Assembly (NCBI GenBank): GCA_016839785.1
Contig: JAEOTQ010000246.1
Location: 1 to 12,630, forward strand
Direction: 5' to 3'
Length of the DNA stretch: 12,630 nt
DNA from: Candidatus Hodarchaeota archaeon
GTDB taxonomy: Archaea; Asgardarchaeota; Heimdallarchaeia; Hodarchaeales; Hodarchaeaceae
This document shows, piece after piece, positions 3-12,630 of this stretch. Position numbers and translations under genes: made by a program. Below the pieces are notes generated by a model, which made no database searches, was not told the origin of the DNA, and saw only the letters and a program-made list of their open reading frames with translations. Positions within the stretch are counted from its first letter, which is position 1. Each line of letters opens with the position of its first letter.

Positions 3-521
3 AAAAATTTAGACCCTTATCCCATAACTATTCCTTACAAGACGGGCGGTCATTTCCTTTCGAAACCAATACTCATCTCTCCGATAGGTGGGGAGACACT
101 TCAGGGCACGGTGACCATTCAGTGGACAGCCTCAGCCGATTCACTAGGACATACGATAGTCTATGATATTGAACTCTCTACTGACGGTGGTACTAGTTGG
201 ACATCATTAATAACTGGGTTAACAACCCCCCATTATGTGTGGGATTCCACGACTATAGCTGATGGCAATAATTATCTTGTGAAAATCAATGCTAGTTGCG
301 TTGAAGGATTATGGCAGGTTGATATTTCTGATAGCACATTCAGTATTATTAACACAGTCACAACTGGAACTCCAACTAAGACTACTACGACAAGTACTCC
401 TACTACTATAGTCACAACAAACCCTCCAACTCTTCCAGTTCCATCATCAGGATTTAGTTTATTATCTGTCTTTGTAATAATTGCTGTAAGTCTAATCATC
501 AAGAAAAAGGATAAGAGATGA
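3..521 (+). CDS. C-terminal part of a cell-surface protein (end of a NosD/beta-helix-type domain, Ig/FN3-like domain, Thr-rich linker, C-terminal TM anchor); 5'-truncated by window
   Basis: The frame of ORF 111..521 is open back to position 3 (KNLDPYPITIPYKTGGHFLSKPILISPIGGETLQGTVTIQW...). NLDPYP matches the NEDPYP/NTDLFP ending of the two beta-helix proteins in this window. SPIGGE...TIQW is typical of small Ig-like domains. Ends with a Thr-rich stretch, SSGF, a hydrophobic helix and KKKDKR. Confidence 0.85.
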   Translation, partial: KNLDPYPITIPYKTGGHFLSKPILISPIGGETLQGTVTIQWTASADSLGHTIVYDIELSTDGGTSWTSLITGLTTPHYVWDSTTIADGNNYLVKINASCVEGLWQVDISDSTFSIINTVTTGTPTKTTTTSTPTTIVTTNPPTLPVPSSGFSLLSVFVIIAVSLIIKKKDKR

Positions 522-584
522 AGAGGAACTGAAATCATTAAGAGCGTGTATCGTTTGAGGATTTAGAATAAAGTAAGAGGTAGA

Positions 585-620
585 CTCCCCCATATCTCTT
601 TTCCCTTCCACCTTTTTTTC
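585..620 (+). terminator. Pyrimidine-rich/oligo-T archaeal-type terminator
   Basis: ctcccccatatctcttttcccttccacctttttttc downstream of the 3..521 gene; a similar tract follows the 608 aa gene (12224-12253). Confidence 0.45.
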
Positions 621-659
621 AATATTATGAGATCTCATTCATTAAAATCTGAAATAAAT

Positions 660-900: not shown

Positions 901-3900
901 GTGAAGAAAAAGAAATTTTCATTATCATTGCTAGTATTTATACTAATAGTTTTAGTTCAGGTTTTAAATGTTTTAATTTGGACTGAAACTGGAATTACTG
1001 CTCCTCAAACTACAATCTATCCTTCTAGATCATTATTCTCTATTTCTAAGCCAATGACATATATAGAACATGATCCTATCGACATTGATAATAATTCGGC
1101 ATTTGGCCCCTCAGGTTACAATTTTCCTGGAAGTGGCACCATTAACGATCCATATATAATCGGGGGGTATAATATCACCAATTCTGAGAAGAATTTGATA
1201 GATATTTACAACACTACAGTCTATTTCCAGATCAATAACAGTTGGTTAAATGGCTTAAATAGCATGAATTACGGTATCAATCTTGAAAAAGTCACAAACG
1301 GAATAATTACAGACAATGACATAATGAATAGCAGATATGGCATTAGGGTGACATCATCCTCAGAAAATAACACATTTACAGATAATACTGTAACCAACAA
1401 CACTTTTGCAAGTATTTATTTAGGTTCTACAGAAAATAACACTGTTATTGCTAATACTATTTGCTATAATTCTGGTATTGGGGTTTTAATCTCGGGTACC
1501 AACAATATTTTGTTCAACAATATAATCTATAATAACTCAAATGGCATAAAATTAGGTTCCGATAGAAATACTCTGTCAAATAATTCTATATTCAATAACA
1601 GTAACAATGGATTTCACTTGGAAAACTCATACAACAATACTATATTCAATAATACCATCTGTAATAACAAAGACGATGGAATATACTTGAGTCATTCGTC
1701 AAGCAACTCCATTACAAATAATACTATCTGTAACAACAATGACTATGGGATTAATCTTTACTTTTCGTCAAACAATACCATCGCTAATAATACGAGCAGT
1801 AACAATTACAAAGACGGAATATACCTACGTAGTTCGTCTAACAACAACAGCATTGGCAAGAACACTATCAATAACAACGACTACAACGGAATACGCTTGC
1901 AGTCTTCGTATAATAACACCATGATTAATAATGCGATCAACCACAGCTTCAATTCTGGGATTCACCTGTTTTATTCGACTGACAACACTATCGCTAATAA
2001 TAGCATATGTAACAACAACGACTACGGGATAAATCTTTATTCTTCGTCAAACAACACCATATTTTACAACAAAATGACAAATGATAGCCTTTACCTCTCA
2101 GGAAATGTCGTTAAAGACTGTGTACAACGTGAAGTGGTTGGTAACCTAGTTGGTGGAAAACCCCTAGTTTTTTGGCAGAGTATTACTAGCGGAGTAGTTC
2201 CTCTTGGAGCAGGGCAAGTCGTTTTGGTTAATACTACCACAGTTACTATTAGTGGTCAAAACTTATCTAAAACAAGAGTTGGTCTAGTAGTGACCTTCTG
2301 TCAGCAATTGAATATTAGTAATAATATCATCAGCAACAACGAAGACGGAATAATCATGGATTTTTCAAATACAAATACTATTGCTAATAATGAAATCAGG
2401 GACAATAACGACGATGGATTATTCCTGTATTATTCGACGGAGAATACTATTATTAATAATACCATCAATAACAACAATGACAGCGGAATATACCTGTTTT
2501 CTTCAACTATGAACACTCTTACAAATAATGCCATAAGTAACAACAAAGGCATTGGATTGTTCTTGGAGTCTTCAATTAATAACAACATTACCAATAATAC
2601 TGTCAGTAGCAATAAGGACGACGGAATAAACCTAGAGTCTTCACCTAACAACACCATTGCTCAAAATACCATTGAAAACAACTACGACGCCGGAATTTAT
2701 CTATATGATTCAGTTAACAACACTATTACTAATAATACTATCAAAAATAACACCATTTACGGAATGTATCTATCATCTTCAGCCGATAACAACCTCATAA
2801 CCTTTAATACTATCAGAAATAATAATAAACGCGGAATGCGTCTATTAAGATCAGCAAACAACATCATTGCTGATAATGCTATCAGTAAAAACAACGGTGA
2901 CGGAATTTATACGTTTGCTTCAGCCAACAACACCATTAACAATAATATTATCAATAACAACAGCGGTTACGGAATGTACGTGAGTTCTTCATCAAATTAC
3001 ACTATTTCTGAGAATATCATCAGCAATAACAGGGGATACGAAATATTCCTGTATTTTTCAACTAACAATACCATTAGTAATAATACTATTTTTGACAACA
3101 ACTACAAACACGGAATATCCATGAGTCATTCAGCTCACAATAGTATATTATGCAATAATTTGTCAAATGTAGGCCTTTCAATTTCTGGAAATGTAGTTGA
3201 AGAATGTTTACAACATGAAGTGGTTGGTAACCTTGTCAATGGGAAACCATTAATTTTTTGGCAGAATGTTGAAGGTGGAATAGTCCCTCTTGGTGCTGGG
3301 CAAATTGTCTTGGTCAATACAAGTGGTGTTATTATTAGTAGTCAAAACATATCTAATACTTCAGCAGGCGCAGTTGTAACCTTTAGTCATCAGATAAAGA
3401 TCACCAATAATGACATCAACGGAATATTCCTGACTTATTCAGCTAACAACACCATTAGCAATAATTACATCAACAACAACAGATATTACGGAATATACCT
3501 GGGTTCTTCTACAGAGAATACCATCAGTAATAACTACATCAACAACAACCACGATGGAATAGTTCTAAGTTCTTCAGCACACAACACCATTACTGAGAAT
3601 ATAATCAACAATAACGACGAGGATGGAATACGCCTGTTTTTTTCAGATAACAACACGGTTGCCAATAATATCATCAACAACAATGAAAACAACGGAATAA
3701 AACTGTCGCGCTCAGTCGACAACACCATTGGCAATAATTACATCATTAACAATACCAAAAACGGAATAGACCTGTATTATTCAGCTAATAACACCATTAG
3801 TTTTAATGATTTTGTAGGAAACAACCCAGGGGGACCATCTCAAGCATATGATTCAAATAATTTAGGCCAGGATAATATTTTTCACTTCAATTATTGGGAT

Positions 3901-4188
3901 GATTGGACCAACCCTGATAATAATGATGATGGTATTGTTGATAATCCTTATGCTATTTTTGGTGATGAATTTAATGAAGACCCCTATCCAGTGACGGCTC
4001 CTTATGATATCGATGTTAGTTCCCTCACTACAACAACAATCACTACCTCAACAACTAGGGAAACATCAATGACAGAAACAACGACATCTGAAAAAACAAT
4101 GACGATAACAACAAAAGCAGCAGATTTTGGCGTGATCTCAATATTTATAATTGCTTTAATTTTCCTTAACAGAAACCAAAGAACTTGA
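901..4188 (+). CDS. Membrane-anchored right-handed parallel beta-helix (NosD/pectin lyase-like, PbH1 repeats) surface protein, 1095 aa
   Basis: Basic/hydrophobic N-terminal signal, HDPIDI...GSGTINDPYIIG cap, many ~22 aa GIYL.SS.NNTI.NNTI.NN repeats, NYWDDW...DGIVDNPY...DPYP end, Thr-rich linker, TM and basic tail. GTG start preceded by AGGAG (887-891). Confidence 0.92.
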   Translation: MKKKKFSLSLLVFILIVLVQVLNVLIWTETGITAPQTTIYPSRSLFSISKPMTYIEHDPIDIDNNSAFGPSGYNFPGSGTINDPYIIGGYNITNSEKNLIDIYNTTVYFQINNSWLNGLNSMNYGINLEKVTNGIITDNDIMNSRYGIRVTSSSENNTFTDNTVTNNTFASIYLGSTENNTVIANTICYNSGIGVLISGTNNILFNNIIYNNSNGIKLGSDRNTLSNNSIFNNSNNGFHLENSYNNTIFNNTICNNKDDGIYLSHSSSNSITNNTICNNNDYGINLYFSSNNTIANNTSSNNYKDGIYLRSSSNNNSIGKNTINNNDYNGIRLQSSYNNTMINNAINHSFNSGIHLFYSTDNTIANNSICNNNDYGINLYSSSNNTIFYNKMTNDSLYLSGNVVKDCVQREVVGNLVGGKPLVFWQSITSGVVPLGAGQVVLVNTTTVTISGQNLSKTRVGLVVTFCQQLNISNNIISNNEDGIIMDFSNTNTIANNEIRDNNDDGLFLYYSTENTIINNTINNNNDSGIYLFSSTMNTLTNNAISNNKGIGLFLESSINNNITNNTVSSNKDDGINLESSPNNTIAQNTIENNYDAGIYLYDSVNNTITNNTIKNNTIYGMYLSSSADNNLITFNTIRNNNKRGMRLLRSANNIIADNAISKNNGDGIYTFASANNTINNNIINNNSGYGMYVSSSSNYTISENIISNNRGYEIFLYFSTNNTISNNTIFDNNYKHGISMSHSAHNSILCNNLSNVGLSISGNVVEECLQHEVVGNLVNGKPLIFWQNVEGGIVPLGAGQIVLVNTSGVIISSQNISNTSAGAVVTFSHQIKITNNDINGIFLTYSANNTISNNYINNNRYYGIYLGSSTENTISNNYINNNHDGIVLSSSAHNTITENIINNNDEDGIRLFFSDNNTVANNIINNNENNGIKLSRSVDNTIGNNYIINNTKNGIDLYYSANNTISFNDFVGNNPGGPSQAYDSNNLGQDNIFHFNYWDDWTNPDNNDDGIVDNPYAIFGDEFNEDPYPVTAPYDIDVSSLTTTTITTSTTRETSMTETTTSEKTMTITTKAADFGVISIFIIALIFLNRNQRT

Positions 4189-4376: not shown

Positions 4377-4504
4377 AAAAAAGAAAACTCTATCCACCCG
4401 AATTTTTATGTATTCACACTAATAAGCGTATTTTCTCAAACAGTGATCTCTATGCTGAGCTTTCGGACTAATTCCTTGTACCGATTGCGTACGGTGACTT
4501 CAGT
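4377..4504 (-). repeat. tfb 3'-end repeat R2 (coding part 4436-4504)
   Basis: Minus strand ACT GAA GTC ACC GTA CGC AAT CGG TAC AAG GAA TTA GTC CGA AAG CTC AGC ATA GAG ATC ACT GTT TGA gives the same 22 aa; 11/69 nt differ from tfb, all synonymous. The UTR shares aaaaaagaaaactc..tccacc..aattt with R3. Confidence 0.95.
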
Positions 4505-5102
4505 ATTGAAAACATCAATAAATCCATCACAAAGAAAACAAGAATAATAAAAAAAAGAATAGGGGGAGAGTCAACCAAGGGAAAGCTACTTCATTAATTC
4601 GAGTGTCTTTTTGAAAGTGAAATGAATGTCGATTAGAGGTTCAGCTCCAAAATTAACCAACAATCCAAGCGGATAACTCATAATTTGTTCCCAAAGTGCT
4701 TCATGGGAATCCGCGTTTACAATAGCAAGACCCCCACCGTCAATGGTCTGATAGACACAATCAATGGAACCATCTGCGAGCTTTGTTTCAAACCATTTAA
4801 TAGTAGCTTGGATTAACTCTCGATAATTTTCTGGGGCTTGAACTCCCTCACGGGGTTCTGCCACAACAAGGAATTTCAATCTTTTTCACCTCTCCTGTGA
4901 TATTCCTACCTAGGATAAAAAAGTTGGTTTTCAGAGGGCAAGAAAGGATAAATTCCGAGAAATAGACTTATTAGAAAAAAGAAAACTCCCTCCACCCAAA
5001 TTTAGGTGTATTCACTTTAGTAATCGTTTTTCGTCAAACAGTTATCTCTATACTGAGCTTTCGGACTAATTCCTTGTATCTGTTGCGTACGGTCACCTCG
5101 GT
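4505..5102. mobile_element. Putative inserted unit B (598 bp): tail R3 + 97 aa gene
   Basis: Bounded by equivalent junctions of R2 and R3; single small gene with its own RBS and downstream T-tract. Mobility is inferred. Confidence 0.6.
4586..4879 (-). CDS. Small alpha/beta protein, muconolactone delta-isomerase-like / DUF3303-like
   Basis: MKFLV start and GGGLAIVNADSHEALWEQIMSYPL motif resemble this family. TTG start preceded by a strong GGAGAGGTGA Shine-Dalgarno (4887-4896, minus strand); oligo-T tract downstream (4549-4556). Confidence 0.7.
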   Translation of the reverse strand: MKFLVVAEPREGVQAPENYRELIQATIKWFETKLADGSIDCVYQTIDGGGLAIVNADSHEALWEQIMSYPLGLLVNFGAEPLIDIHFTFKKTLELMK

Positions 5103-5146: not shown

Positions 5147-7408
5147 CTAGTAACGTTGATTTTTACGCGAAGGAAATAAGCTGATTATTAGTACAGATAG
5201 AACTATTAGAAATTCAAAAGCACTGGAAGTTTGTGATGTAGAACTATGAGGAGTTAAAGGATCACAGCTGGATTCAACTTCTTCTCCATCGCTTTCTCCA
5301 TCATTATCACTATCCCAATTGTTAGGATCTGTCCCTATCAAGTATTCGTTGAAGTTAGAAAGACCATCGCTATCTTTGTCTTGTTTAGCATCCAGTGGAT
5401 CCGAAGAATTAAGTCCCATATGATGTTCCCAACCATCAGGCATACCATCATCGTCAGTATCGGAGTCAGTAGCGTTTAATCCCAATTGAAATTCCTGTAG
5501 ATTTGTGAGATCGTCTCCATCAGAATCATGCGACGCATCGTTGGCACTAGAAGGTTTAAGTCCCATATGATGTTCCCAACCATCAGGCATACCATCATCG
5601 TCAGTATCGGAGTCAGTAGCGTTTAATCCCAATTGATATTCCTGCAGATTTGTGAGATCGTCTCCATCAGAATCCAGAGTAGCATCGAGGGGATTAGTGG
5701 CATTCAAATCCATTTGATATTCCCACTTATTCAACATACCGTCAAGATCTTTATCTTCCGTTGCATCTTGGGGATTAGTTATGTTTAACCCCATTTCATA
5801 TTCCCAACCATCAGGTATGGTATCTCCATCACTGTCAGGATTTGTAACATTAAAATCATTGCAAATTTCAAAGAAATCTGTCAATCCATCATAATCTGAG
5901 TCTATCCATGAGTTATGAAACAAACAAAGGATTGCATCACCTGGACCTTTGAGTTTCCAAGATTCATCCGTTGTTGGAAAAAACTCAGAGTAGGTTTCCC
6001 CGAATAAGACTATGTTCTCTTTCACATTAATACTATAGCCTCTTTCAAACTTTTCTCCTCCAATAAATGTACTCCATTGCAAAGTTCCAGAGTTAGAAAA
6101 TGAAGAAATGAATATATCCCCTTGGCCAACTAATGTTGAACTGTATGCATTTAGGGTAGGAAAATCAATTGATTGAGTGGTTCCAGCAATTACAACATTT
6201 CCTTGAATATCAATATCCATCGCAGAAACTCCATCAGTTGAGTTGCCTCCTATTAATGTACTCCAAAGTAGTGTCTGGTTGGATGCAAATTTAGAAAGAA
6301 AGGTATCAGATGAACTTCCTGCATTCAGAGCATTATCAAAAGCGTTTAATGTAGGAAAATCAGGAGAATAGGTTCTCCCAGCAATAAAAATATTGTTAAA
6401 ACGATCAATTGCTACAGTATTACACGTATCAGATTTGTTTCCACCAAAATAAGAACTCCAGATTAAGGAACTAGTGGGAGCGAATTTTATGATGACACCA
6501 TCAGAGGAATCATATTCATCATCAAATGCATTTAGGGTTGGAAAATTAAACGACCAAGTTGATCCAACGACTACGACATTGTTTTCAGAATCATGATCTA
6601 TTCCCGACCCACTATCGTCATTATAGCCACCCACAATAGTACTCCATAATATAGAACCGCTAGAAGAAAATTTTGAAATAAAAATATCAGATCCTCCAAT
6701 GTCACCTCCTGGTTTAGAATAATGAGCGTTTATAGTAGGGAAATCTGTGGATTCAGTTTGACCAGTGAGAATGATGTTGTCCAAGTTATCGATCGTAACA
6801 TCTCCTACTAACTCTTTATCTGATCCTCCAATGTATGTACTCCATATTAACAAACCAGCTGGGCTAAATTTTGAAATGAAAATATCGTAATCCGAATCTC
6901 CGTTGTGAGTATAATCATATGCATTTAAGGTAGGAAAATCTTTTGACTGAGTTCCCCCAATTGCTATAATATTATCATCACTATCAACTGTTACAATCTT
7001 ACCATCTTCATTCAAACTTCCACCTATATATGTACTCCACTGCAATGAACCATTAGGATAAAATTTTGATAAAAAAGCGTCCATATCACCATTGAGAGTA
7101 TTATCATATGAATTGAGGGTTGGGAAATCATTAGACCAAGTTGTACCTATTCCTATTATATTTCCGTGACTATCGATAGTAACATCCTTACCAGAATCAC
7201 TACCGCTTCCACCGAAGAAAGTACTGAAAGTGAGTAAATCTTGGAAGATCTCATTTTTCTTCATCGAATATAATAAAAAATTAACATCATTACAGAAAGT
7301 ATTCTCTTTGGAATGACAAGTAGTTATGCTAAAACTACACACTAGGATTGAACTTAATAGGATAAATTCTATAAGATAGACCATTTTTTGATATCGAAAT
7401 TGGATCAT
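5147..7408 (-). CDS. Surface protein with SBBP-type beta-propeller repeats, thrombospondin type-3-like Ca-binding repeats and C-terminal TM anchor, 753 aa
   Basis: About 7 repeats of WSTYIGGS..D.G..I.ID...NI...G.T.S.DFPTLNA.D....G..D.FISKF; DSDGD/DTDDDGMPDGWE repeats; Ser/Thr linker, SAFEF, hydrophobic helix, RKNQRY. Confidence 0.9.
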   Translation of the reverse strand: MIQFRYQKMVYLIEFILLSSILVCSFSITTCHSKENTFCNDVNFLLYSMKKNEIFQDLLTFSTFFGGSGSDSGKDVTIDSHGNIIGIGTTWSNDFPTLNSYDNTLNGDMDAFLSKFYPNGSLQWSTYIGGSLNEDGKIVTVDSDDNIIAIGGTQSKDFPTLNAYDYTHNGDSDYDIFISKFSPAGLLIWSTYIGGSDKELVGDVTIDNLDNIILTGQTESTDFPTINAHYSKPGGDIGGSDIFISKFSSSGSILWSTIVGGYNDDSGSGIDHDSENNVVVVGSTWSFNFPTLNAFDDEYDSSDGVIIKFAPTSSLIWSSYFGGNKSDTCNTVAIDRFNNIFIAGRTYSPDFPTLNAFDNALNAGSSSDTFLSKFASNQTLLWSTLIGGNSTDGVSAMDIDIQGNVVIAGTTQSIDFPTLNAYSSTLVGQGDIFISSFSNSGTLQWSTFIGGEKFERGYSINVKENIVLFGETYSEFFPTTDESWKLKGPGDAILCLFHNSWIDSDYDGLTDFFEICNDFNVTNPDSDGDTIPDGWEYEMGLNITNPQDATEDKDLDGMLNKWEYQMDLNATNPLDATLDSDGDDLTNLQEYQLGLNATDSDTDDDGMPDGWEHHMGLKPSSANDASHDSDGDDLTNLQEFQLGLNATDSDTDDDGMPDGWEHHMGLNSSDPLDAKQDKDSDGLSNFNEYLIGTDPNNWDSDNDGESDGEEVESSCDPLTPHSSTSQTSSAFEFLIVLSVLIISLFPSRKNQRY
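5409..5674. repeat. Intragenic near-perfect duplication (119 bp x2, period 147 bp = 49 aa)
   Basis: 5409-5527 vs 5556-5674 are identical at 117/119 positions. Confidence 0.9.
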
Positions 7409-7467: not shown

Positions 7468-9030
7468 TCACTTCTTCCGTCTAAAGTAGATTAAGATTCC
7501 AAAAGTTGGAATCAATAGAAAAAGACTCCAAAATGAAGATAAATTATCAGTGCGAGAAAAGCTGGATTGACTAGTAGTTTCTGTGGTTGCTGTTGATTTT
7601 GTAAAATAAGATGAATATTCGCTAGTATGATCATGACTCTGACTATAGGAACTTCGAGAAGTATGAGTGATAGTACTAGTCGTAGGATAAGAAGAATCAG
7701 TTATAGTACAATTGAATAAGGGGAAAAGATCTGTATTGTTTGCCTGGCCATCTATTAGATAAGGCTGATCAACAAATCCATCTCCATCAACATCTGGTTT
7801 ACACCAATCACTCCACTGATTCTGAGTGAAATTATTCGAACTCACTCCTTTATAGTCATCATATGCTTGTGATGATTCAAATGGACTATTATTAAGAAAT
7901 TTATTCCATTGGATTTGGTTTGCAACAGCGCTTTCAAGATATAAGCCATAATAGCCGTTATCAATAAATGTATTATTCTCAATAGCGCCGAAATGAGATG
8001 ATTTAAGATGTAATCCGTTTTGAGTATTTGTCAAAAGGGAGTTTTGTAGGATGATATTTCGATGTCCAGACGTGATAATTATCCCTATCTCGTTGTTATT
8101 AACCGTATTATTGTGGATGAAACTGTCACTCAAGCCACAGGAAATCCCATGTTGAGAATTATTATGAATAAGATTGTGTGAGATGTTAATATAATCTCCC
8201 CAGATTTGGATACCAGCTCCACCAAATTCACGAATATTATCGAAAATATGGTTATATGATATAGTAGAATTAAATAAATCACCCCAGATTCCACATCCAT
8301 ACCCTGAAATTTGATTTTCGACAATTGTTGCATATGGGACATCGTTCAATTGAACACCATAACCATAATTATCAGTACAATGTATTGTATTATTGATCAT
8401 CTTGATATACTCAGGATAATCAACAATATTAAGGGATTTGAAGTATAGGGCATTTAGTGACACCCCAGTCTTACTCGTGGTAATTGTATTATTGGCTATC
8501 AACACATAATCAGACCGGTCTATATTTATTCTACCATCAATTAATTCATTCGATATAAGAGAACCATTCCCTCCGCATGTCAAGTAGACTCCTGATTCAA
8601 ACAAAGTGCAATTGAAAATGGTAAAATGGCTAGTATTAGTGAAGCCAATTCCTCCAGTTATCAATAAACAGTTAATTATCTTGAAATGAACAGATGTGTA
8701 TCTAATACCAATTGCGGACCCGCTACTAGTTTGAATTCTTAAGTTTTCGATGATGTATGGGTTTGAGGCAGTCCCATTACCAGACCAACCTTCCAAATAT
8801 GCTGTGTCATTAAAAGCGGTATCACTTGAAATGGAAATAGGATCATGTAGATCGTAATGTGTTGTCATTAATTCAAAAACTGGACCACTAAACGCTTCTT
8901 TCTTAGTTATTTCATTATTATTATAATCAAAGATTGCACCAAAATTTTTGTTTAAATTCCAAAAAAGTAAACAAATCACTAAAATCAGAATTGTAAAAAT
9001 CGATGCTCTCCTTTCCATCCTTGTTCTCAC
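7468..9030 (-). CDS. Membrane-anchored NosD/pectin lyase-like beta-helix surface protein, 520 aa
   Basis: HDPISI...WSGNGTASNPYIIENL cap, beta-helix repeats, NQWSDW..PDVDGDGFVDQPY.IDG...DLFPL end, Ser/Thr linker, TM and RRKK. Same architecture as 901..4188. Confidence 0.9.
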   Translation of the reverse strand: MRTRMERRASIFTILILVICLLFWNLNKNFGAIFDYNNNEITKKEAFSGPVFELMTTHYDLHDPISISSDTAFNDTAYLEGWSGNGTASNPYIIENLRIQTSSGSAIGIRYTSVHFKIINCLLITGGIGFTNTSHFTIFNCTLFESGVYLTCGGNGSLISNELIDGRINIDRSDYVLIANNTITTSKTGVSLNALYFKSLNIVDYPEYIKMINNTIHCTDNYGYGVQLNDVPYATIVENQISGYGCGIWGDLFNSTISYNHIFDNIREFGGAGIQIWGDYINISHNLIHNNSQHGISCGLSDSFIHNNTVNNNEIGIIITSGHRNIILQNSLLTNTQNGLHLKSSHFGAIENNTFIDNGYYGLYLESAVANQIQWNKFLNNSPFESSQAYDDYKGVSSNNFTQNQWSDWCKPDVDGDGFVDQPYLIDGQANNTDLFPLFNCTITDSSYPTTSTITHTSRSSYSQSHDHTSEYSSYFTKSTATTETTSQSSFSRTDNLSSFWSLFLLIPTFGILIYFRRKK

Positions 9031-9114: not shown

Positions 9115-9495
9115 ATGCAAAACAGAATTGTATCTTTGCCTGACAGTCCATTGACACATTCAGGCTCCGTCCTCATTGACTCACCACGGATCGGGCCACC
9201 ACATGAGCAAGTCGTCCCCAGGGACGTGAAAACACACACAGGGGAAACTGAACCAGAAAACTGGAATGTCTTACGCAAAGATTCTCCAGAACAAGAAGGA
9301 GTGACAACAATGTCATCCAATACTACTCCCCCTTACAAGGGGTTTAAATGGGAGTTCCCCCGAATGAACTACATTCGGGAGAATCCCGAAAAACTTCTCA
9401 AGACTAATATCTTGAGATACCTCTGCATCGCTGCAGAGCTCGATATTATTGCTAATATCGAGAAATACCTCGTTGAGGTATTTGAGACCCTTTGA
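9115..9495 (+). CDS. Hypothetical protein whose N-terminal half is homologous to the N-terminus of the 608 aa LAGLIDADG-like protein; possible remnant
   Basis: SPRIGPPHEQVVPRDVKTHTG vs SPRIGPDREQSYPREVKTTEG; exact 19 bp match ctcaccacggatcgggcca at 9180-9198 and 10585-10603; followed by a pyrimidine tract (about 9530-9553). Confidence 0.55.
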   Translation: MQNRIVSLPDSPLTHSGSVLIDSPRIGPPHEQVVPRDVKTHTGETEPENWNVLRKDSPEQEGVTTMSSNTTPPYKGFKWEFPRMNYIRENPEKLLKTNILRYLCIAAELDIIANIEKYLVEVFETL

Positions 9496-9587: not shown

Positions 9588-10085
9588 TTAAGTACTCCCT
9601 TTAATCGTTTCTTTTACATCCTTTGTTGGAAAATTCTCCATATTCCCTTCCGTAATCCTGTGAATCCAAGGCATAATTGCCATGATCTCACCAGTGGGAC
9701 TTTTAACTAGCATAAATGGAAGACGTCGGTCAATAGCACTCGAATACAAATCTTTGTATTCTTTATACTGATCGTTTGAGACAAGAAAAGCATCAAGTTG
9801 TGTAGCTAATTCTAAGATGAAACGATCACTATCGGTGTTTGGAGGAGTCTCAAGAACCTCTCGTTTAGAAATTGATGCTTTTAAGCTCTGAGGGTCATCA
9901 ATACGATACTTCAACATTGATGAGACTACAGGAAAAACTGATCCGAGTTGTTGAAGTCTTTGGATGACAACCAATAGACCTTGAAGTTCCGCGTTCCGCG
10001 CCTTCTTACGAAAAAAAGCTACATTATTGCCATCGATAACGAAATGCATGTCGAACACTTGGATTGAAGTTGTAGATTTCACCAA
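9588..10085 (-). CDS. NYN/Zc3h12a-like PIN-fold ribonuclease
   Basis: FVIDGNNVA, TPPNTDSDRFILELA and LVSNDQYKEY motifs supply the conserved acidic residues of the family. The true start may be ATG at 10049. Confidence 0.85.
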   Translation of the reverse strand: MVKSTTSIQVFDMHFVIDGNNVAFFRKKARNAELQGLLVVIQRLQQLGSVFPVVSSMLKYRIDDPQSLKASISKREVLETPPNTDSDRFILELATQLDAFLVSNDQYKEYKDLYSSAIDRRLPFMLVKSPTGEIMAIMPWIHRITEGNMENFPTKDVKETIKGST

Positions 10086-10120: not shown

Positions 10121-10370
10121 AAATTCATTCATAAACTCCCATAAATTAATGGAATTGCTTCTCGAGTATAAAAGGGACACAGGGAATCAAAGGTAGAATT
10201 TCAAATCCAGAAATTCAGGTGTTTGATCTTTAGTGAGAGCGTTCTAAACAGAAGGCCACAACTTATCGAAGATTGAAACGGAAGTCTAAGTAAGAAGACT
10301 CTCCACACCGCCCCCTTACTTGATAGTGGTAGGGGTAACAAATAAAAAAACTATAAGCCTTCTCATTACG

Positions 10371-10379
10371 AGGAGGTGA
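10371..10379 (+). promoter_or_regulatory. Shine-Dalgarno site AGGAGGTGA of the 608 aa gene
   Basis: Consensus archaeal SD 8 nt upstream of ATG 10388. Confidence 0.75.
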
Positions 10380-10387
10380 CATAAAAT

Positions 10388-12214
10388 ATGGCAGTTGAAG
10401 TGCTCCAAGAGACACATTGTCTTGATACACTCATTGAAATCCATCAGGTGGATGTAGCTGAGTGTGTAGAGCACTCAGCTGCCCTACTTCCCGAAAGAGG
10501 TTTCTCAGAAGCCTCTCGCACTCTCTTAACGGAGTGCCCCCAAATGGGAAACGCGCAACGACGCATCCCGTTTGGGCTCACAGGCTCACCACGGATCGGG
10601 CCAGATCGTGAGCAAAGCTATCCAAGGGAAGTAAAAACCACTGAAGGGAAGAAGTTAGTAGACGACAACCGTGTGACTCCAGAGCACCTCAACTGGTTTG
10701 AGGTGTTACAAGTGAGAAAAAATGAAAAAAAACCCGATCAGGAGCTGCCCCCACTCCCAGATCGAGCGATTAAGGGCCTCAAGAGGCCTTGGGTGTCTCC
10801 CAACGGTGAACCGTTTCATACGGTGAGTCTGTGGGAGTTTGAAAATCTATACGTCTTATTGGGTGAAAAAGATTGGAAAAGCCTTTCAATGTTCTTGAAA
10901 AGCATGAACCTTTCGGTGTTGTCCCGTCAGCTTAAGATAGGACAAAAAACCCTCAGATGTATCCGCGACAATCGTAACCAATCGATAGTGGTGCCTAACC
11001 TCTGCAAACTCTGTGAAGAAGCAGAGTTAGACCTCGAATCAGTCGAAAGAATGATAAGAGGAGTACGATTCAATAAATCGGGAGAAATTGAAAAAATCCT
11101 TTTCCCCTTCGTCATGGACATCTACGCTTGGCGGGCTTTGTGTCATATTGCTGGTGATGGTAATATCCATAAACGGAAATTCCCTGATCTTCGATGGATC
11201 CAAGCTCGAGAGAACCAAGTTCCAATGCGTGATCTTCTCAAACGCCTGAGTCGGCCAACAGGTGGCGAGAGTATCTACATCAATTATCCCAAGGCGTTAT
11301 CCTACGCTATCATGGGAACCATTCCTGGAATGACGTTGAGTGACCTCCGATCCCCAAAATTTATACAATTTGTCATCGATCTTCCACCCACATATCGTGA
11401 TTGGAAGATACAATTCCTTGCTGCATTCATCATTGATGATGGTTGTGTGAGTGGTGATATTTCCTTCAATCAGAAGGACAGAACCATTCTTGAAAAAGTA
11501 ATGAGTTTATGTGACCAATTAGGATATGATCATTCACCATATCCACCAAAAAGACAACAGCGTGATGGAATGCATGATTTTCAACTTCGATCAAAAGGTT
11601 ACCGAAATTTTTACAATGATCTCAATGACCTTCTTTCACGTTATGCTAAAGATTCCATCTTAAGTCTCTGGCATAAGTACCCCAAATTGCAAAATCTCGT
11701 TGATAGAATCTCTGATAAACGTCTGGAGGAGAATCAACGATCTATAGTTGTCTATGAAACGATCCTCACAATATTAGGAGATCATCAAATTCGAAGTAGT
11801 AAACAACTTCGTGAACATCCCAAACTACAACCACTTGTTGAGAATTACTCCTCTAAGATTTTCAGAGATCGTTTGCGATGGTTGATAACTCATGACCTCA
11901 TTCAAGAAGTCAAAAAAACCAACGGTGGTTCCTATCGACCAAAACGCTTGATCATTCCTTCCTCCCATGATCTCGAAACTCTAATTCAGGAGTTTCATAC
12001 CTTATATGGCGATCGTGCTCATTCTCAATCCTATAAACGTCAATTTGTCACTGTAGAGATGGCCAACAAAGCCAAGGCACGTCTAATCTCTCGTGGTGTT
12101 AAACCAAACCCTACGAATACCGCTCGTGAAGGAGGTTTCTCTAGGAAGCTTTTCTATGAACGAGCTGATCTACGTGCCTTATTTGAGGATGATATTGAGG
12201 AATTTGAGGAATAG
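10388..12214 (+). CDS. Free-standing double-motif LAGLIDADG (homing endonuclease-like) protein with HTH-like domains, 608 aa
   Basis: Motif 1 AWRALCHIAGDG (11126-11161) and motif 2 FLAAFIIDDG (11414-11443) are about 94 aa apart and each is followed by strand-like segments (LRWIQ; ISFNQKDRTILEKV..LGY). Upstream XRE-like HTH (LSVLSRQLKIGQKTL...NLCKLC); downstream wHTH-like segment and terminal HTH-like segment (PTNTAREGGFSRKLFY). No intein splice motifs seen. Assigned by eye. Confidence 0.7.
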   Translation: MAVEVLQETHCLDTLIEIHQVDVAECVEHSAALLPERGFSEASRTLLTECPQMGNAQRRIPFGLTGSPRIGPDREQSYPREVKTTEGKKLVDDNRVTPEHLNWFEVLQVRKNEKKPDQELPPLPDRAIKGLKRPWVSPNGEPFHTVSLWEFENLYVLLGEKDWKSLSMFLKSMNLSVLSRQLKIGQKTLRCIRDNRNQSIVVPNLCKLCEEAELDLESVERMIRGVRFNKSGEIEKILFPFVMDIYAWRALCHIAGDGNIHKRKFPDLRWIQARENQVPMRDLLKRLSRPTGGESIYINYPKALSYAIMGTIPGMTLSDLRSPKFIQFVIDLPPTYRDWKIQFLAAFIIDDGCVSGDISFNQKDRTILEKVMSLCDQLGYDHSPYPPKRQQRDGMHDFQLRSKGYRNFYNDLNDLLSRYAKDSILSLWHKYPKLQNLVDRISDKRLEENQRSIVVYETILTILGDHQIRSSKQLREHPKLQPLVENYSSKIFRDRLRWLITHDLIQEVKKTNGGSYRPKRLIIPSSHDLETLIQEFHTLYGDRAHSQSYKRQFVTVEMANKAKARLISRGVKPNPTNTAREGGFSRKLFYERADLRALFEDDIEEFEE

Positions 12215-12223
12215 AAGGAAAAT

Positions 12224-12253
12224 CTCCCCTTTTTTCCCTTCCCCTCTTTTTTT
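12224..12253 (+). terminator. Pyrimidine-rich/oligo-T terminator
   Basis: ctccccttttttcccttcccctcttttttt just after the stop at 12214. Confidence 0.55.
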
Positions 12254-12291
12254 GACAGGACTTTGTATAGATCTAAATTGCTTCTTTTAAT

Positions 12292-12423
12292 AAAAAAACT
12301 TGATAACTCCCTCACTCCGAATTTATATTTACTATATGCGTCTGATGTATTTTGTTAAACAGTGATCTCTATACTAAGCTTTCTGACCAATTCCTTGTAC
12401 CTGTTTCTCACGGTGACTTCGGT
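12292..12423 (-). repeat. tfb 3'-end repeat R0: the currently functional tail + UTR + T7 tract
   Basis: ACC GAA GTC ACC GTG AGA AAC AGG TAC AAG GAA TTG GTC AGA AAG CTT AGT ATA GAG ATC ACT GTT TAA. The UTR retains aactccctc..ccgaattt seen in R1-R3; T-tract at 12292-12298 (minus strand). Confidence 0.9.
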
Positions 12424-12630
12424 AACGTGAGCCACTTCTGAGATTTCTCGTTGTGTCCGCCGTTCTCCATTGATTATTCCTGAGATATAGATTGCCGCTG
12501 CTGCTAACCCGGTCGGATCTTTCCCTGCTGTCAGTCCTGCCGCTTTCGCCCGTTTTAGTATTGATGCTGCTTTCCGTTGGCATACTCCTGACAGGCGTAG
12601 TTCTGTCCCGAACCGCACTAGATAATCGAT
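12355..12630 (-). CDS. tfb: Transcription initiation factor IIB (archaeal TFB), C-terminal cyclin repeat; 5'-truncated by window
   Basis: Frame open to the window edge: [14 protein letters not shown]...[18 protein letters not shown]...[25 protein letters not shown], the canonical TFIIB second repeat with its BRE-binding HTH. Confidence 0.97.

Follow-up and report, generated by a model that had tools for sequence, protein, structure and literature searches.

The window analysed here is the entire contig G000:C49 (12,630 nt) of a Hodarchaeales-type Asgard metagenome-assembled genome. At one end it carries the 3' part of the gene tfb; the contig end falls within tfb, and the 5' part of this gene is present on no contig of the assembly. 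Converging on tfb is an intact open reading frame (ORF, 10388-12214) that encodes a LAGLIDADG-family protein of 608 amino acids (aa), the two stop codons being separated by 140 nt. The end of tfb, hereafter the tail, is found four times: once as the functional end of the gene (R0) and three times as orphan copies (Rc, Rb and Ra) that divide the remainder of the window into units carrying other genes. The features on which the argument rests are the following.

10370..10379, + strand: Shine-Dalgarno-like sequence GAGGAGGTGA, 8 nt before the ATG
10388..12214, + strand: LAGLIDADG-family gene, 608 aa, intact (ORF; 39 homologues; AF2 model and fold matches)
10388..10729, + strand: variable N-terminal extension, aa 1-114, with the motif GSPRIGP..EQ..PREVKT; open in only some homologues
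10865..11050, + strand: predicted Cro/C1-type helix-turn-helix (HTH) region, about aa 160-221 (helices at model residues 46-107)
11111..11704, + strand: predicted double LAGLIDADG core, aa 242-439, with D257 and D351 at the ends of the motif helices (model residues 128-325)
11711..11962, + strand: predicted winged-helix domain, aa 442-525 (Z 9.4 and 9.2 to the cullin WHB domain; Z 9.1 to PadR)
12053..12187, + strand: predicted small C-terminal helical domain, aa 556-600 (AF2 helices 127-170), its fold barely tested; only in the tfb-linked long form, absent from the short forms
12215..12295, no strand: spacer from the LAGLIDADG stop codon to the repeat, with a C/T-rich block kept beside other copies (alignment)
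12296..12423, - strand: R0, the functional tfb tail plus about 59 nt of 3' flank with a T-run (repeat family D3; codon view)
12355..12630, - strand: tfb 3' part, 91 codons (Pfam TFIIB, E 5.7e-22; NCBIfam PRK00423)
4975..5102, - strand: Rc, orphan tfb tail with a perfect 22-codon frame (repeat search, codon view)
4377..4504, - strand: Rb, orphan tfb tail with a perfect 22-codon frame, 91% identical to the functional tail of locus L063
657..784, - strand: Ra, orphan tfb tail with a perfect 22-codon frame (repeat search, codon view)
520..656, + strand: remnant directly before Ra, comprising the last 10 or so codons of an older LAGLIDADG gene and its spacer (alignment)
9115..9495, + strand: 126-aa ORF, a degenerate 5' remnant of the LAGLIDADG family retaining the N-extension motif and a piece of the HTH (repeat D14)

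The repeat is 128 nt long and its four copies are in direct orientation, each made of 22 tfb codons, a stop codon and a flank of about 59 nt whose end is a T-run; in R0 the coding part (12355-12423) is the last 22 codons and the stop of tfb itself. All four tails of the window encode the same 22 residues. The 4-11 coding differences that separate any pair are all synonymous, with no non-synonymous change, whereas only 24% of random changes in the tail would be synonymous. This bias argues that each orphan was shaped while it served as a working gene end. The direct repeats thus flank the units and rebuild the target gene, the 22-codon frame being kept in every tail. Past the coding part of R0, the 28th to 50th nt after the stop codon (12305-12327) contain a block of about 20 nt, in tfb sense AAATTYGGGTGGAKGGAGTT, ahead of the T-run; this block is kept in all four window tails and in the tails of genome G004, and could be a terminator or a protein-binding site.

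Residues 115-608 of the LAGLIDADG-family protein were modelled with AF2 (mean pLDDT 91.5). Foldseek assigned a probability of 1.00 to I-DmoI and to intein endonucleases, and LAGLIDADG endonucleases of inteins and introns ranked first. VIA-align returned Z 13.5 for PI-PfuI (root-mean-square deviation, rmsd, 2.9 over 178 residues) and Z 13.4 for I-DmoI, with 165-178 residues aligned at rmsd 2.9 over both nucleases (model residues 128-333); WhiA scored Z 11.6 and 10.0. The modelled protein has two alpha-beta-beta-alpha-beta-beta-alpha domains that pack via their LAGLIDADG helices, as in the LAGLIDADG superfamily. It is predicted to be a monomer whose double LAGLIDADG core has a Cro-type HTH and a winged helix on its flanks, together with a small helical domain at the C-terminus. 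Motif 1 reads CHIAGDGNI (G256 D257 G258) and motif 2 AAFIIDDGC (D350 D351), the family forms being CHIxGDGN and FLAAFxxDDG. The acidic residues of the GDG and DDG motifs are invariant in all 39 homologues (31 of 31 in the alignment) and, judged by motif position, D257 and D351 would occupy the metal-binding or catalytic positions. The original prediction, made from the DNA letters alone, had proposed a LAGLIDADG-like protein with its acidic residues retained, and the structural matches and the motif conservation bear this out.

Profile searches gave fainter signals. Pfam LAGLIDADG_3 matched aa 339-409 of the window protein with E 8e-4 and 20.0 bits, under the 22.5-bit cut-off, and 16 of the 39 family members at E <= 0.05 (best 5.9e-6); HTH_26 matched 8 of the 39 and HTH_19 4. 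No NCBIfam match was found for the window protein, and a PDB sequence search with the family profile returned only noise (E 6.6). The 39 homologues, collected by a word-index search, carry the organism labels Hodarchaeales, Heimdallarchaeota or Promethearchaeota and are called 'hypothetical protein' wherever a name is given. When 1.84 billion protein representatives were searched, about 190 further matches were obtained beyond the close family, down to E 1e-3. Many of these remote relatives are 370-460 aa long and align to the HTH, LAGLIDADG and winged-helix positions; among ten of them (about 380 aa) looked up by cluster, one had a name, again 'hypothetical protein'. A wider uncharacterised superfamily with an HTH/LAGLIDADG/winged-helix architecture seems to exist.

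The N-terminal extension behaves differently from the core. For the pair of homologues at loci L007 and L042, dN/dS is 0.15 over the 478 codons of the core, which is under purifying selection, and 0.74 in the extension, which is nearly neutral. We considered whether the GC-rich segment 10250-10750 and the repeat 9172-9233/10577-10638 could represent a structured RNA resembling a bridge or guide RNA. This reading was rejected because the frame is open over 114-258 codons in several homologues, because the MxxEVL start is kept with a Shine-Dalgarno-like site upstream (the N-terminus MxxEVLxxT is common to several homologues in the alignment), and because the second copy of the repeat belongs to a degenerate gene remnant. 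We read the extension as coding.

Loci carrying the family were taken from GTDB genomes, from the window's own assembly and from metagenome contigs (L008-L013 coincide with L041-L046). Eleven loci have enough downstream DNA to be assessed, and in 10 of these the long form and the same tfb orthologue are convergent (the window, L007, L042, L043 and L061-L066, the exception being L041; L067 runs off its contig and was left out), and this linkage persists down to 44% protein identity. The gap between the gene and tfb is 100-180 nt in five loci and 0.7-1.5 kb in six. Four of the longer gaps hold a member of an unannotated family of 135-210-aa ORFs (o176), co-directional with tfb, and two hold a repeat protein. 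ORFs of the o176 type lie at L007 8591-9121, L042 12252-12839, L043 12263-12670, L062 2346-2978 and L054 3874-4428, and those scanned had no Pfam match; in genome G005 such an ORF directly follows an orphan tail, a second element-linked gene. The repeat protein (L061 1933-3069; L066 1005-1715) is built of repeats of about 60 residues (...LPK..D.....I..AI.R.KW...GI..WNDL...) and has no meaningful Pfam match.

Decayed copies are found at the same place. C-terminal remnants of the gene adjoin tfb or orphan tails at L049, L050, L047 (two), L048, G014:C11 and window positions 520-656, where the segment 545-624 is 94% identical to the gene end and spacer of G004:C16. A 5' remnant is also present: the ORF at 9115-9495 matches family members by blastp and blastx with E values of 7e-5 to 1e-3. 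The site has thus been left with both C-terminal and 5' debris, as expected of invasion followed by decay. Within one GTDB genus, 10 of the 20 other genomes contain the family, as intact genes or fragments, and a sample of 280 other genomes from the phylum yielded one weak match. In a tree of 14 family members, the three short forms described below are one clade (100/100) with L041 as weakly supported sister (85/82), so that the members not linked to tfb make a single clade; since the deeper branches are weak, we make no claim of co-evolution between nuclease and tail class.

The 3' end of tfb is an insertion hotspot. In G002 the gene order is mfs-tfb-MBL hydrolase-o206 without any repeat, i.e. 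an empty site; G007 has the same order with a VapB/VapC pair inserted between two 93-nt tail repeats. This cassette (L056 3325-3953, on G007:C20) consists of a VapB-like ORF of 74 aa and a PIN (VapC) ORF of 137 aa, in a genome without the family gene. Orphan tails, one to five each, are present at 7 of 10 tfb loci. At L058 (G014:C11:45000-64999) five of them are spread over about 15 kb downstream of tfb, and the family gene has left no other trace in G014 than 32 C-terminal residues next to one of these tails (C11:54918-55013). The codon boundary between V and T of HVTEVTV is, to within a few nt, the starting point of at least 12 orphan tails. Overall, the tail boundaries fall into four classes, at -23/-22, -17, -14 and -8 codons from the stop.

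We searched these loci for an enzyme of another kind that could account for the arrays. Pfam scans found no recombinase in the window or among the island ORFs. In six-frame searches of G000 and 10 relatives, PF00589 was absent from the array side of tfb; its matches elsewhere were Xer-like proteins, present in every genome searched, and a few other genes, one of them in G018, 14 kb away on the 5' side of tfb. PF00239 was absent from the array contigs of five genomes. The arrangement is not that of an integron either: there is no integrase, and the LAGLIDADG gene lies within the first unit (R0-Rc), not outside the array. ARAGORN found no tRNA gene in the window, hence no attachment (att) site of the tRNA type. 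Three expectations of the original prediction are therefore borne out at the tfb locus: homologues consistently adjoin tfb and orphan tails (10 of 11 loci, plus the remnants), Pfam, PF00589 and PF00239 searches of the window and of the arrays of the 10 relatives revealed no integrase that would explain the junctions, and the guessed target region coincides with the V-T boundary at which orphan tails start.

Members of the family were also found at two other genes. The short form, about 410 aa and without the C-terminal domain, lies between a lysyl-phosphatidylglycerol-synthase-type gene (lpg) and a gene for a membrane protein of about 390 aa (memb). Compared with an empty relative, the insert measures 1569 nt and has the LAGLIDADG gene as its only content; it is flanked by a direct repeat that is a 201-nt duplication of the memb head, from -16 to +185. 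Across the genus this site is occupied in 3 genomes, empty in 14 (lpg and memb being about 95 nt apart) and unclear in 4. The orphan memb head beside the native intergenic region is native-like, and the head attached to memb is diverged. In G011, a family gene is located between a 19-codon orphan head and a MetE-like gene. The MetE-like site has the family gene in 1 of 11 genomes, and in 9 of the 10 others a gene of about 352 aa abuts the MetE-like gene; here again the orphan head is native-like and the functional head diverged. We had considered the short form as a domesticated paralogue in conserved synteny, an idea dropped because of the flanking duplication and the 14 empty sites. Three gene ends are thus targeted (tfb 3', memb 5' and MetE-like 5'), the terminus is duplicated at each, and occupied and empty alleles of all three exist within the genus. 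The proposal that the element brings a replacement gene end is upheld at the two sister-lineage sites, where it is the orphan copy that resembles the native sequence. These comparisons of genomes make the two additional targets, in our view, the most informative result, and they strengthen the homing interpretation.

The original prediction had described R0 as an outlier with private recodings. The coding part of R0 is 84-86% identical to the orphans, which are 88-94% identical to one another; for the 3' flank the figures are 52-55% and 69-87%. However, R0 is 88% identical to the functional tail of another population. The window tfb allele differs from other alleles as much in its body (74-83% identity) as in its tail (72-83%), and no excess of tail over body divergence was found among tfb alleles. 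R0 is thus only a mild outlier of otherwise ordinary divergence. The recodings CGC>AGA, TTA>TTG, CGA>AGA, CTC>CTT and TGA>TAA are indeed present; they are no special escape signature because they match the ordinary synonymous divergence of tfb alleles and few of them lie near the junction. The observation made in the original prediction is therefore confirmed, and its interpretation is partly supported: in the architecture, not in the argument from recoding.

One pair of close alleles also bears on the junction. Between the tfb genes of G007 (which has the cassette in a genome without the family gene) and G002 (empty), 31 of 969 nt differ; the final 500 nt contain 27 of these differences and the initial 469 nt contain 4 (Fisher p 3e-5), a gradient for which the remaining pairs are mosaic or too diverged. 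In the G007/G002 pair, seven consecutive codons, AHVTEVT, are each synonymously changed, making a 21-nt patch centred on the V-T boundary of the tails. LAGLIDADG targets are typically about 20 bp long. The patch has the size and place that would be expected of such a target, as judged from one pair and noticed post hoc.

With moderate confidence, we interpret the ORF at 10388-12214 as a free-standing homing-type endonuclease that replaces a gene end, with cargo hitch-hiking. As a signature gene, it would mark an element whose position in tfb is always the same, 22 codons before the stop. In the mechanism that we propose, the enzyme would recognise about 20 bp of tfb encoding AHVTEVT, with the junction between V and T, and would cut alleles lacking the element. 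The break would be repaired from the occupied allele, by copying the synonymous tail with its terminator, the endonuclease gene and everything up to the displaced old tail; alternatively, a crossover could take place with incoming DNA that bears a copy of the tail. Each invasion would displace the previous functional tail outwards, giving the array Ra-Rb-Rc-R0, and the surface-protein, NYN and other genes would be hitch-hiking cargo. Units without the gene would be decayed elements, such as those that may have left the remnants at 520-656 and 9115-9495, or would have moved in trans or by homologous recombination between tails. A broader generalisation is put forward more tentatively: a LAGLIDADG nuclease, not an integrase, may be the integration module of multi-gene islands in this Asgard genus, cutting a site of roughly 20 bp in the part of tfb that codes for the BRE-recognition helix, so that repair from DNA with a short synonymous tail brings in several kilobases of other genes (for surface proteins, toxin-antitoxin pairs and an ATPase-helicase module) as cargo, displaced coding tails record serial invasions, and the family has been retargeted to 5' gene ends via replacement heads with their own promoter.

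Several observations weigh against the homing interpretation or limit its reach. Arrays exist in genomes without an intact copy of the gene (G005 and G007 have no match, G014 the 32-residue remnant), and the Ra-Rb and Rb-Rc units of the window contain no trace of it. These cassettes and arrays imply that the gene, which the original prediction cast as the driver of the array, could have driven it at best in part, in trans or in the past, and not as a whole. The R0-Rc unit itself holds the older gene remnant and is thus composite, not one clean cargo element. The module shared by L007 and L042 (o176, family gene, KaiC-like ATPase and XPD-like helicase, bounded by a tail of the -17 class) is the best evidence of multi-gene cargo travelling with the gene; it is one pair and could be due to common descent. 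At the junction, R0 differs little from the orphans within 11 nt, and its divergence as a whole is ordinary. The seven-codon patch could be a short conversion tract that owes nothing to cleavage. Among 13 full-length alleles, synonymous diversity averages 0.48 (standard deviation 0.08) and reaches 0.63-0.64 at the junction; this value is high without being a unique peak, as Arg/Leu-rich windows equal it. Three public sequencing runs compared with the window provided only short contigs at a depth of 3-6. The joints that they contain (609>12355, 619>4429 and 12192>565) lie between repeat modules and are ambiguous, with 90% likeness and short sides, and no usable evidence of ongoing movement (excision, circles, empty sites) came from these short, low-depth contigs.

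The most serious competitor, which we nevertheless hold to be unlikely, is that the arrays arise by site-specific recombination at an att site overlapping the 3' end of tfb. The recombinase would be unrecognised or act in trans (Xer-like, or novel, e.g. o176), and the LAGLIDADG gene would be a passenger, a selfish endonuclease or a regulator. The tail repeats are sharply limited on both sides, as att sites are, and include the conserved non-coding block past the stop codon. The cassettes that lack the gene (the VapBC pair of G007, the Ra-Rb and Rb-Rc units of the window, the five tails of G014) are readily understood in this way, and candidates for the enzyme exist in the Xer-like tyrosine recombinase of every genome searched and in the 135-210-aa ORF family situated between tfb and the gene at 4 loci. 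Integrase families at tRNA genes show sublocation classes, which the four tail boundary classes recall; these classes are, however, explained equally well by several recombinase lineages or by several nucleases. A PF00589 or PF00239 gene was found in no array examined, in genome-wide searches that covered these two families only. What recombination at tfb does not account for is the 1569-nt insert, which contains nothing but the LAGLIDADG gene and yet shows the same duplicated terminus and the same polymorphism between empty and occupied sites. In addition, the G007/G002 divergence reaches some 500 nt into the body of tfb and does not stop at a crossover point, and the gene accompanies the tail in 10 of 11 loci, as would an element's own integration module.

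The original prediction had itself offered a domesticated, WhiA-like role as the alternative. The protein would be a sequence-specific DNA-binding protein that regulates the island or the 3' processing of tfb, with no nuclease role, and its position at tfb would reflect function and not mobility. Three extra domains of DNA-binding type (HTH, winged helix and C-terminal helical domain), Z scores to WhiA little below those to the nucleases, and a gene that is intact in several genomes are in keeping with such a role, and the strong purifying selection on the core (dN/dS 0.15) fits a domesticated function as well as homing. WhiA, however, has lost the acidic residues of the LAGLIDADG motifs, which are invariant here in 39 of 39 homologues. 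Nor is the family inherited in a stable vertical manner: it is missing from half of the genus and, but for one weak match in 280 genomes, from the rest of the phylum sample, there are empty sites at all three targets, 5' truncations have repeatedly left only the gene end beside tails, and each target has a duplicated gene terminus. Retention of the acidic residues, together with the presence/absence polymorphism seen at the three targets, weakens this alternative, which we consider improbable. We give slightly less credence still to an explanation without any dedicated enzyme, in which tfb and its repeated tails serve as homology anchors for ordinary homologous swaps of cassettes between strains and the LAGLIDADG gene is one more cassette gene. 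Alleles of tfb are indeed mosaic (e.g. L061 and L063 are 95-96% identical from -500 to -170 and 78% in the tail), the DUF3303-like gene of the window is shared with G004 without its tails, and the exclusively synonymous differences leave the tails usable as functional ends. Homologous exchange leaves unexplained why at least 12 orphan tails duplicate the terminus from the same nucleotide, why the LAGLIDADG gene is the tfb-proximal gene in 10 of 11 loci, and why two other genes show this architecture again, with no content but this gene family.

The homing interpretation has partial precedents. In fungal mitochondria, degenerate LAGLIDADG ORFs are reported to lie between cob and a C-terminal duplicate of it, and endonuclease ORFs to flank an atp6 duplicate (PMC6279837). 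The arrangement is similar: an endonuclease ORF (LAGLIDADG or GIY-YIG) stands between a host gene and its displaced C-terminal copy, as the window gene and decayed copies do between tfb and displaced tails. Unlike the mitochondrial cases, the present system resides on an archaeal chromosome, involves a multi-domain protein (HTH, winged helix and C-terminal domain) and kilobases of cargo other than endonucleases, forms serial arrays that reach 3-5 displaced tails and, in sister lineages, replaces 5' heads too. T4-like phages show intronless homing: a conserved gene has a free-standing endonuclease gene (of the seg or mob type, e.g. mobE) next to it, and a double-strand break made in genomes without that gene leads to unidirectional gene conversion that mobilises the gene and flanking DNA (PMC2790892). 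That outline is the mechanism proposed here, including co-conversion of flanking markers; the phage enzymes, however, are GIY-YIG or HNH proteins, are intergenic and act without duplicating the end of a neighbouring gene, whereas here a LAGLIDADG protein on a cellular chromosome is associated with a replaced gene end.

The best structural matches, I-DmoI (from an rRNA intron) and PI-PfuI (an intein), are likewise monomers with two LAGLIDADG motifs; they share 13-19% sequence identity with the window protein, whose gene lies outside any intron or intein and which has in addition the HTH, the winged helix and the variable N-terminal extension. WhiA, a bacterial LAGLIDADG-derived transcription factor with a C-terminal HTH, resembles it in combining a LAGLIDADG scaffold with helix-turn-helix domains and differs in that the protein described here keeps its acidic residues, is patchily distributed with empty sites and truncated copies, and is archaeal and confined to one genus. 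Islands of tyrosine recombinases in the 3' ends of tRNA or protein genes have in common with the tfb arrays direct repeats that rebuild the gene, tandem accretion, variable cargo and a mobility gene at the gene-proximal repeat. Unlike them, the window and the arrays of 10 relatives yielded no integrase, and the LAGLIDADG gene occupies its place. By title or abstract, we found no published LAGLIDADG system of this kind in Asgard or other archaeal chromosomes, and the excerpt of a paper on Asgard mobile elements contains no mention of LAGLIDADG (PMC11529989). Should the enzyme be active, it would reveal, in the prokaryotes most closely related to eukaryotes, a nuclease-driven, integrase-free entry of kilobase cargo at a constant position in the chromosome, would explain a hypervariable hotspot of surface-protein and toxin-antitoxin genes at an essential transcription gene, and would supply a multi-domain LAGLIDADG scaffold that has been retargeted in nature and for which three candidate targets are available. 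The homing reading is directly testable because empty and occupied alleles exist for all three targets.

The other genes of the window, which would be cargo under the homing interpretation, are listed below by unit.

9588..10085, - strand: R0-Rc unit, NYN (Zc3h12a-like) ribonuclease-domain gene, divergent from the LAGLIDADG gene; cargo or partner (Pfam PF11977, E 1.1e-14)
7468..9030, - strand: R0-Rc unit, 520-aa beta-helix surface protein (NosD/Beta_helix, about 3e-20)
5147..7408, - strand: R0-Rc unit, SBBP beta-propeller surface protein (Pfam SBBP, 4.9e-30)
4586..4879, - strand: Rb-Rc unit, sole gene, DUF3303-like, 97 aa (Pfam, E 0.0023)
901..4188, + strand: Ra-Rb unit, sole gene, 1095-aa beta-helix surface protein with 69-nt periodic repeats (Pfam Beta_helix, 1.6e-158; repeat families D1/D2)

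No Rfam family was found in the window at gathering thresholds. An NYN gene of 27% identity is located near a LAGLIDADG homologue in the metagenome locus L064 (639-1049) and may be a recurrent partner. The region of the DUF3303-like gene (4566-4952) is 88.6% identical at the nt level to G004:C16 (L047) 665-1049, where no tail repeats bound it; the presence of this gene in the G004 array without bounding tails shows that units have not always moved together with tails. At two other loci, the LAGLIDADG gene is followed by genes for a KaiC/AAA-like ATPase and an XPD-like (DEAD_2/Helicase_C_2) helicase (L007 11604-14251; L042 7187-9818), with 63% and 72% protein identity between the loci; the pair resembles a module that would serve an integrated element in replication or repair.

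The assembly G000 contains two tfb orthologues, at window positions 12355-12630 and at C137:15449-16414, which are 98% identical in protein and only about 79% identical in DNA. The two orthologues have separate LAGLIDADG-family genes and separate tail families; the two family proteins are 53% identical to each other, and the paralogue on C137, like the window gene, converges on its tfb, which is there complete. The explanation is either a bin that mixes two related populations or a genome with tfb in two copies. As to the surface proteins, the 1095-aa beta-helix gene consists of about 20 copies of the 69-nt unit and carries a 282-nt internal duplication (2051-2332/3137-3418, 73% identical), and all of the large cargo proteins end in a Thr/Ser-rich linker followed by a hydrophobic C-terminal anchor.

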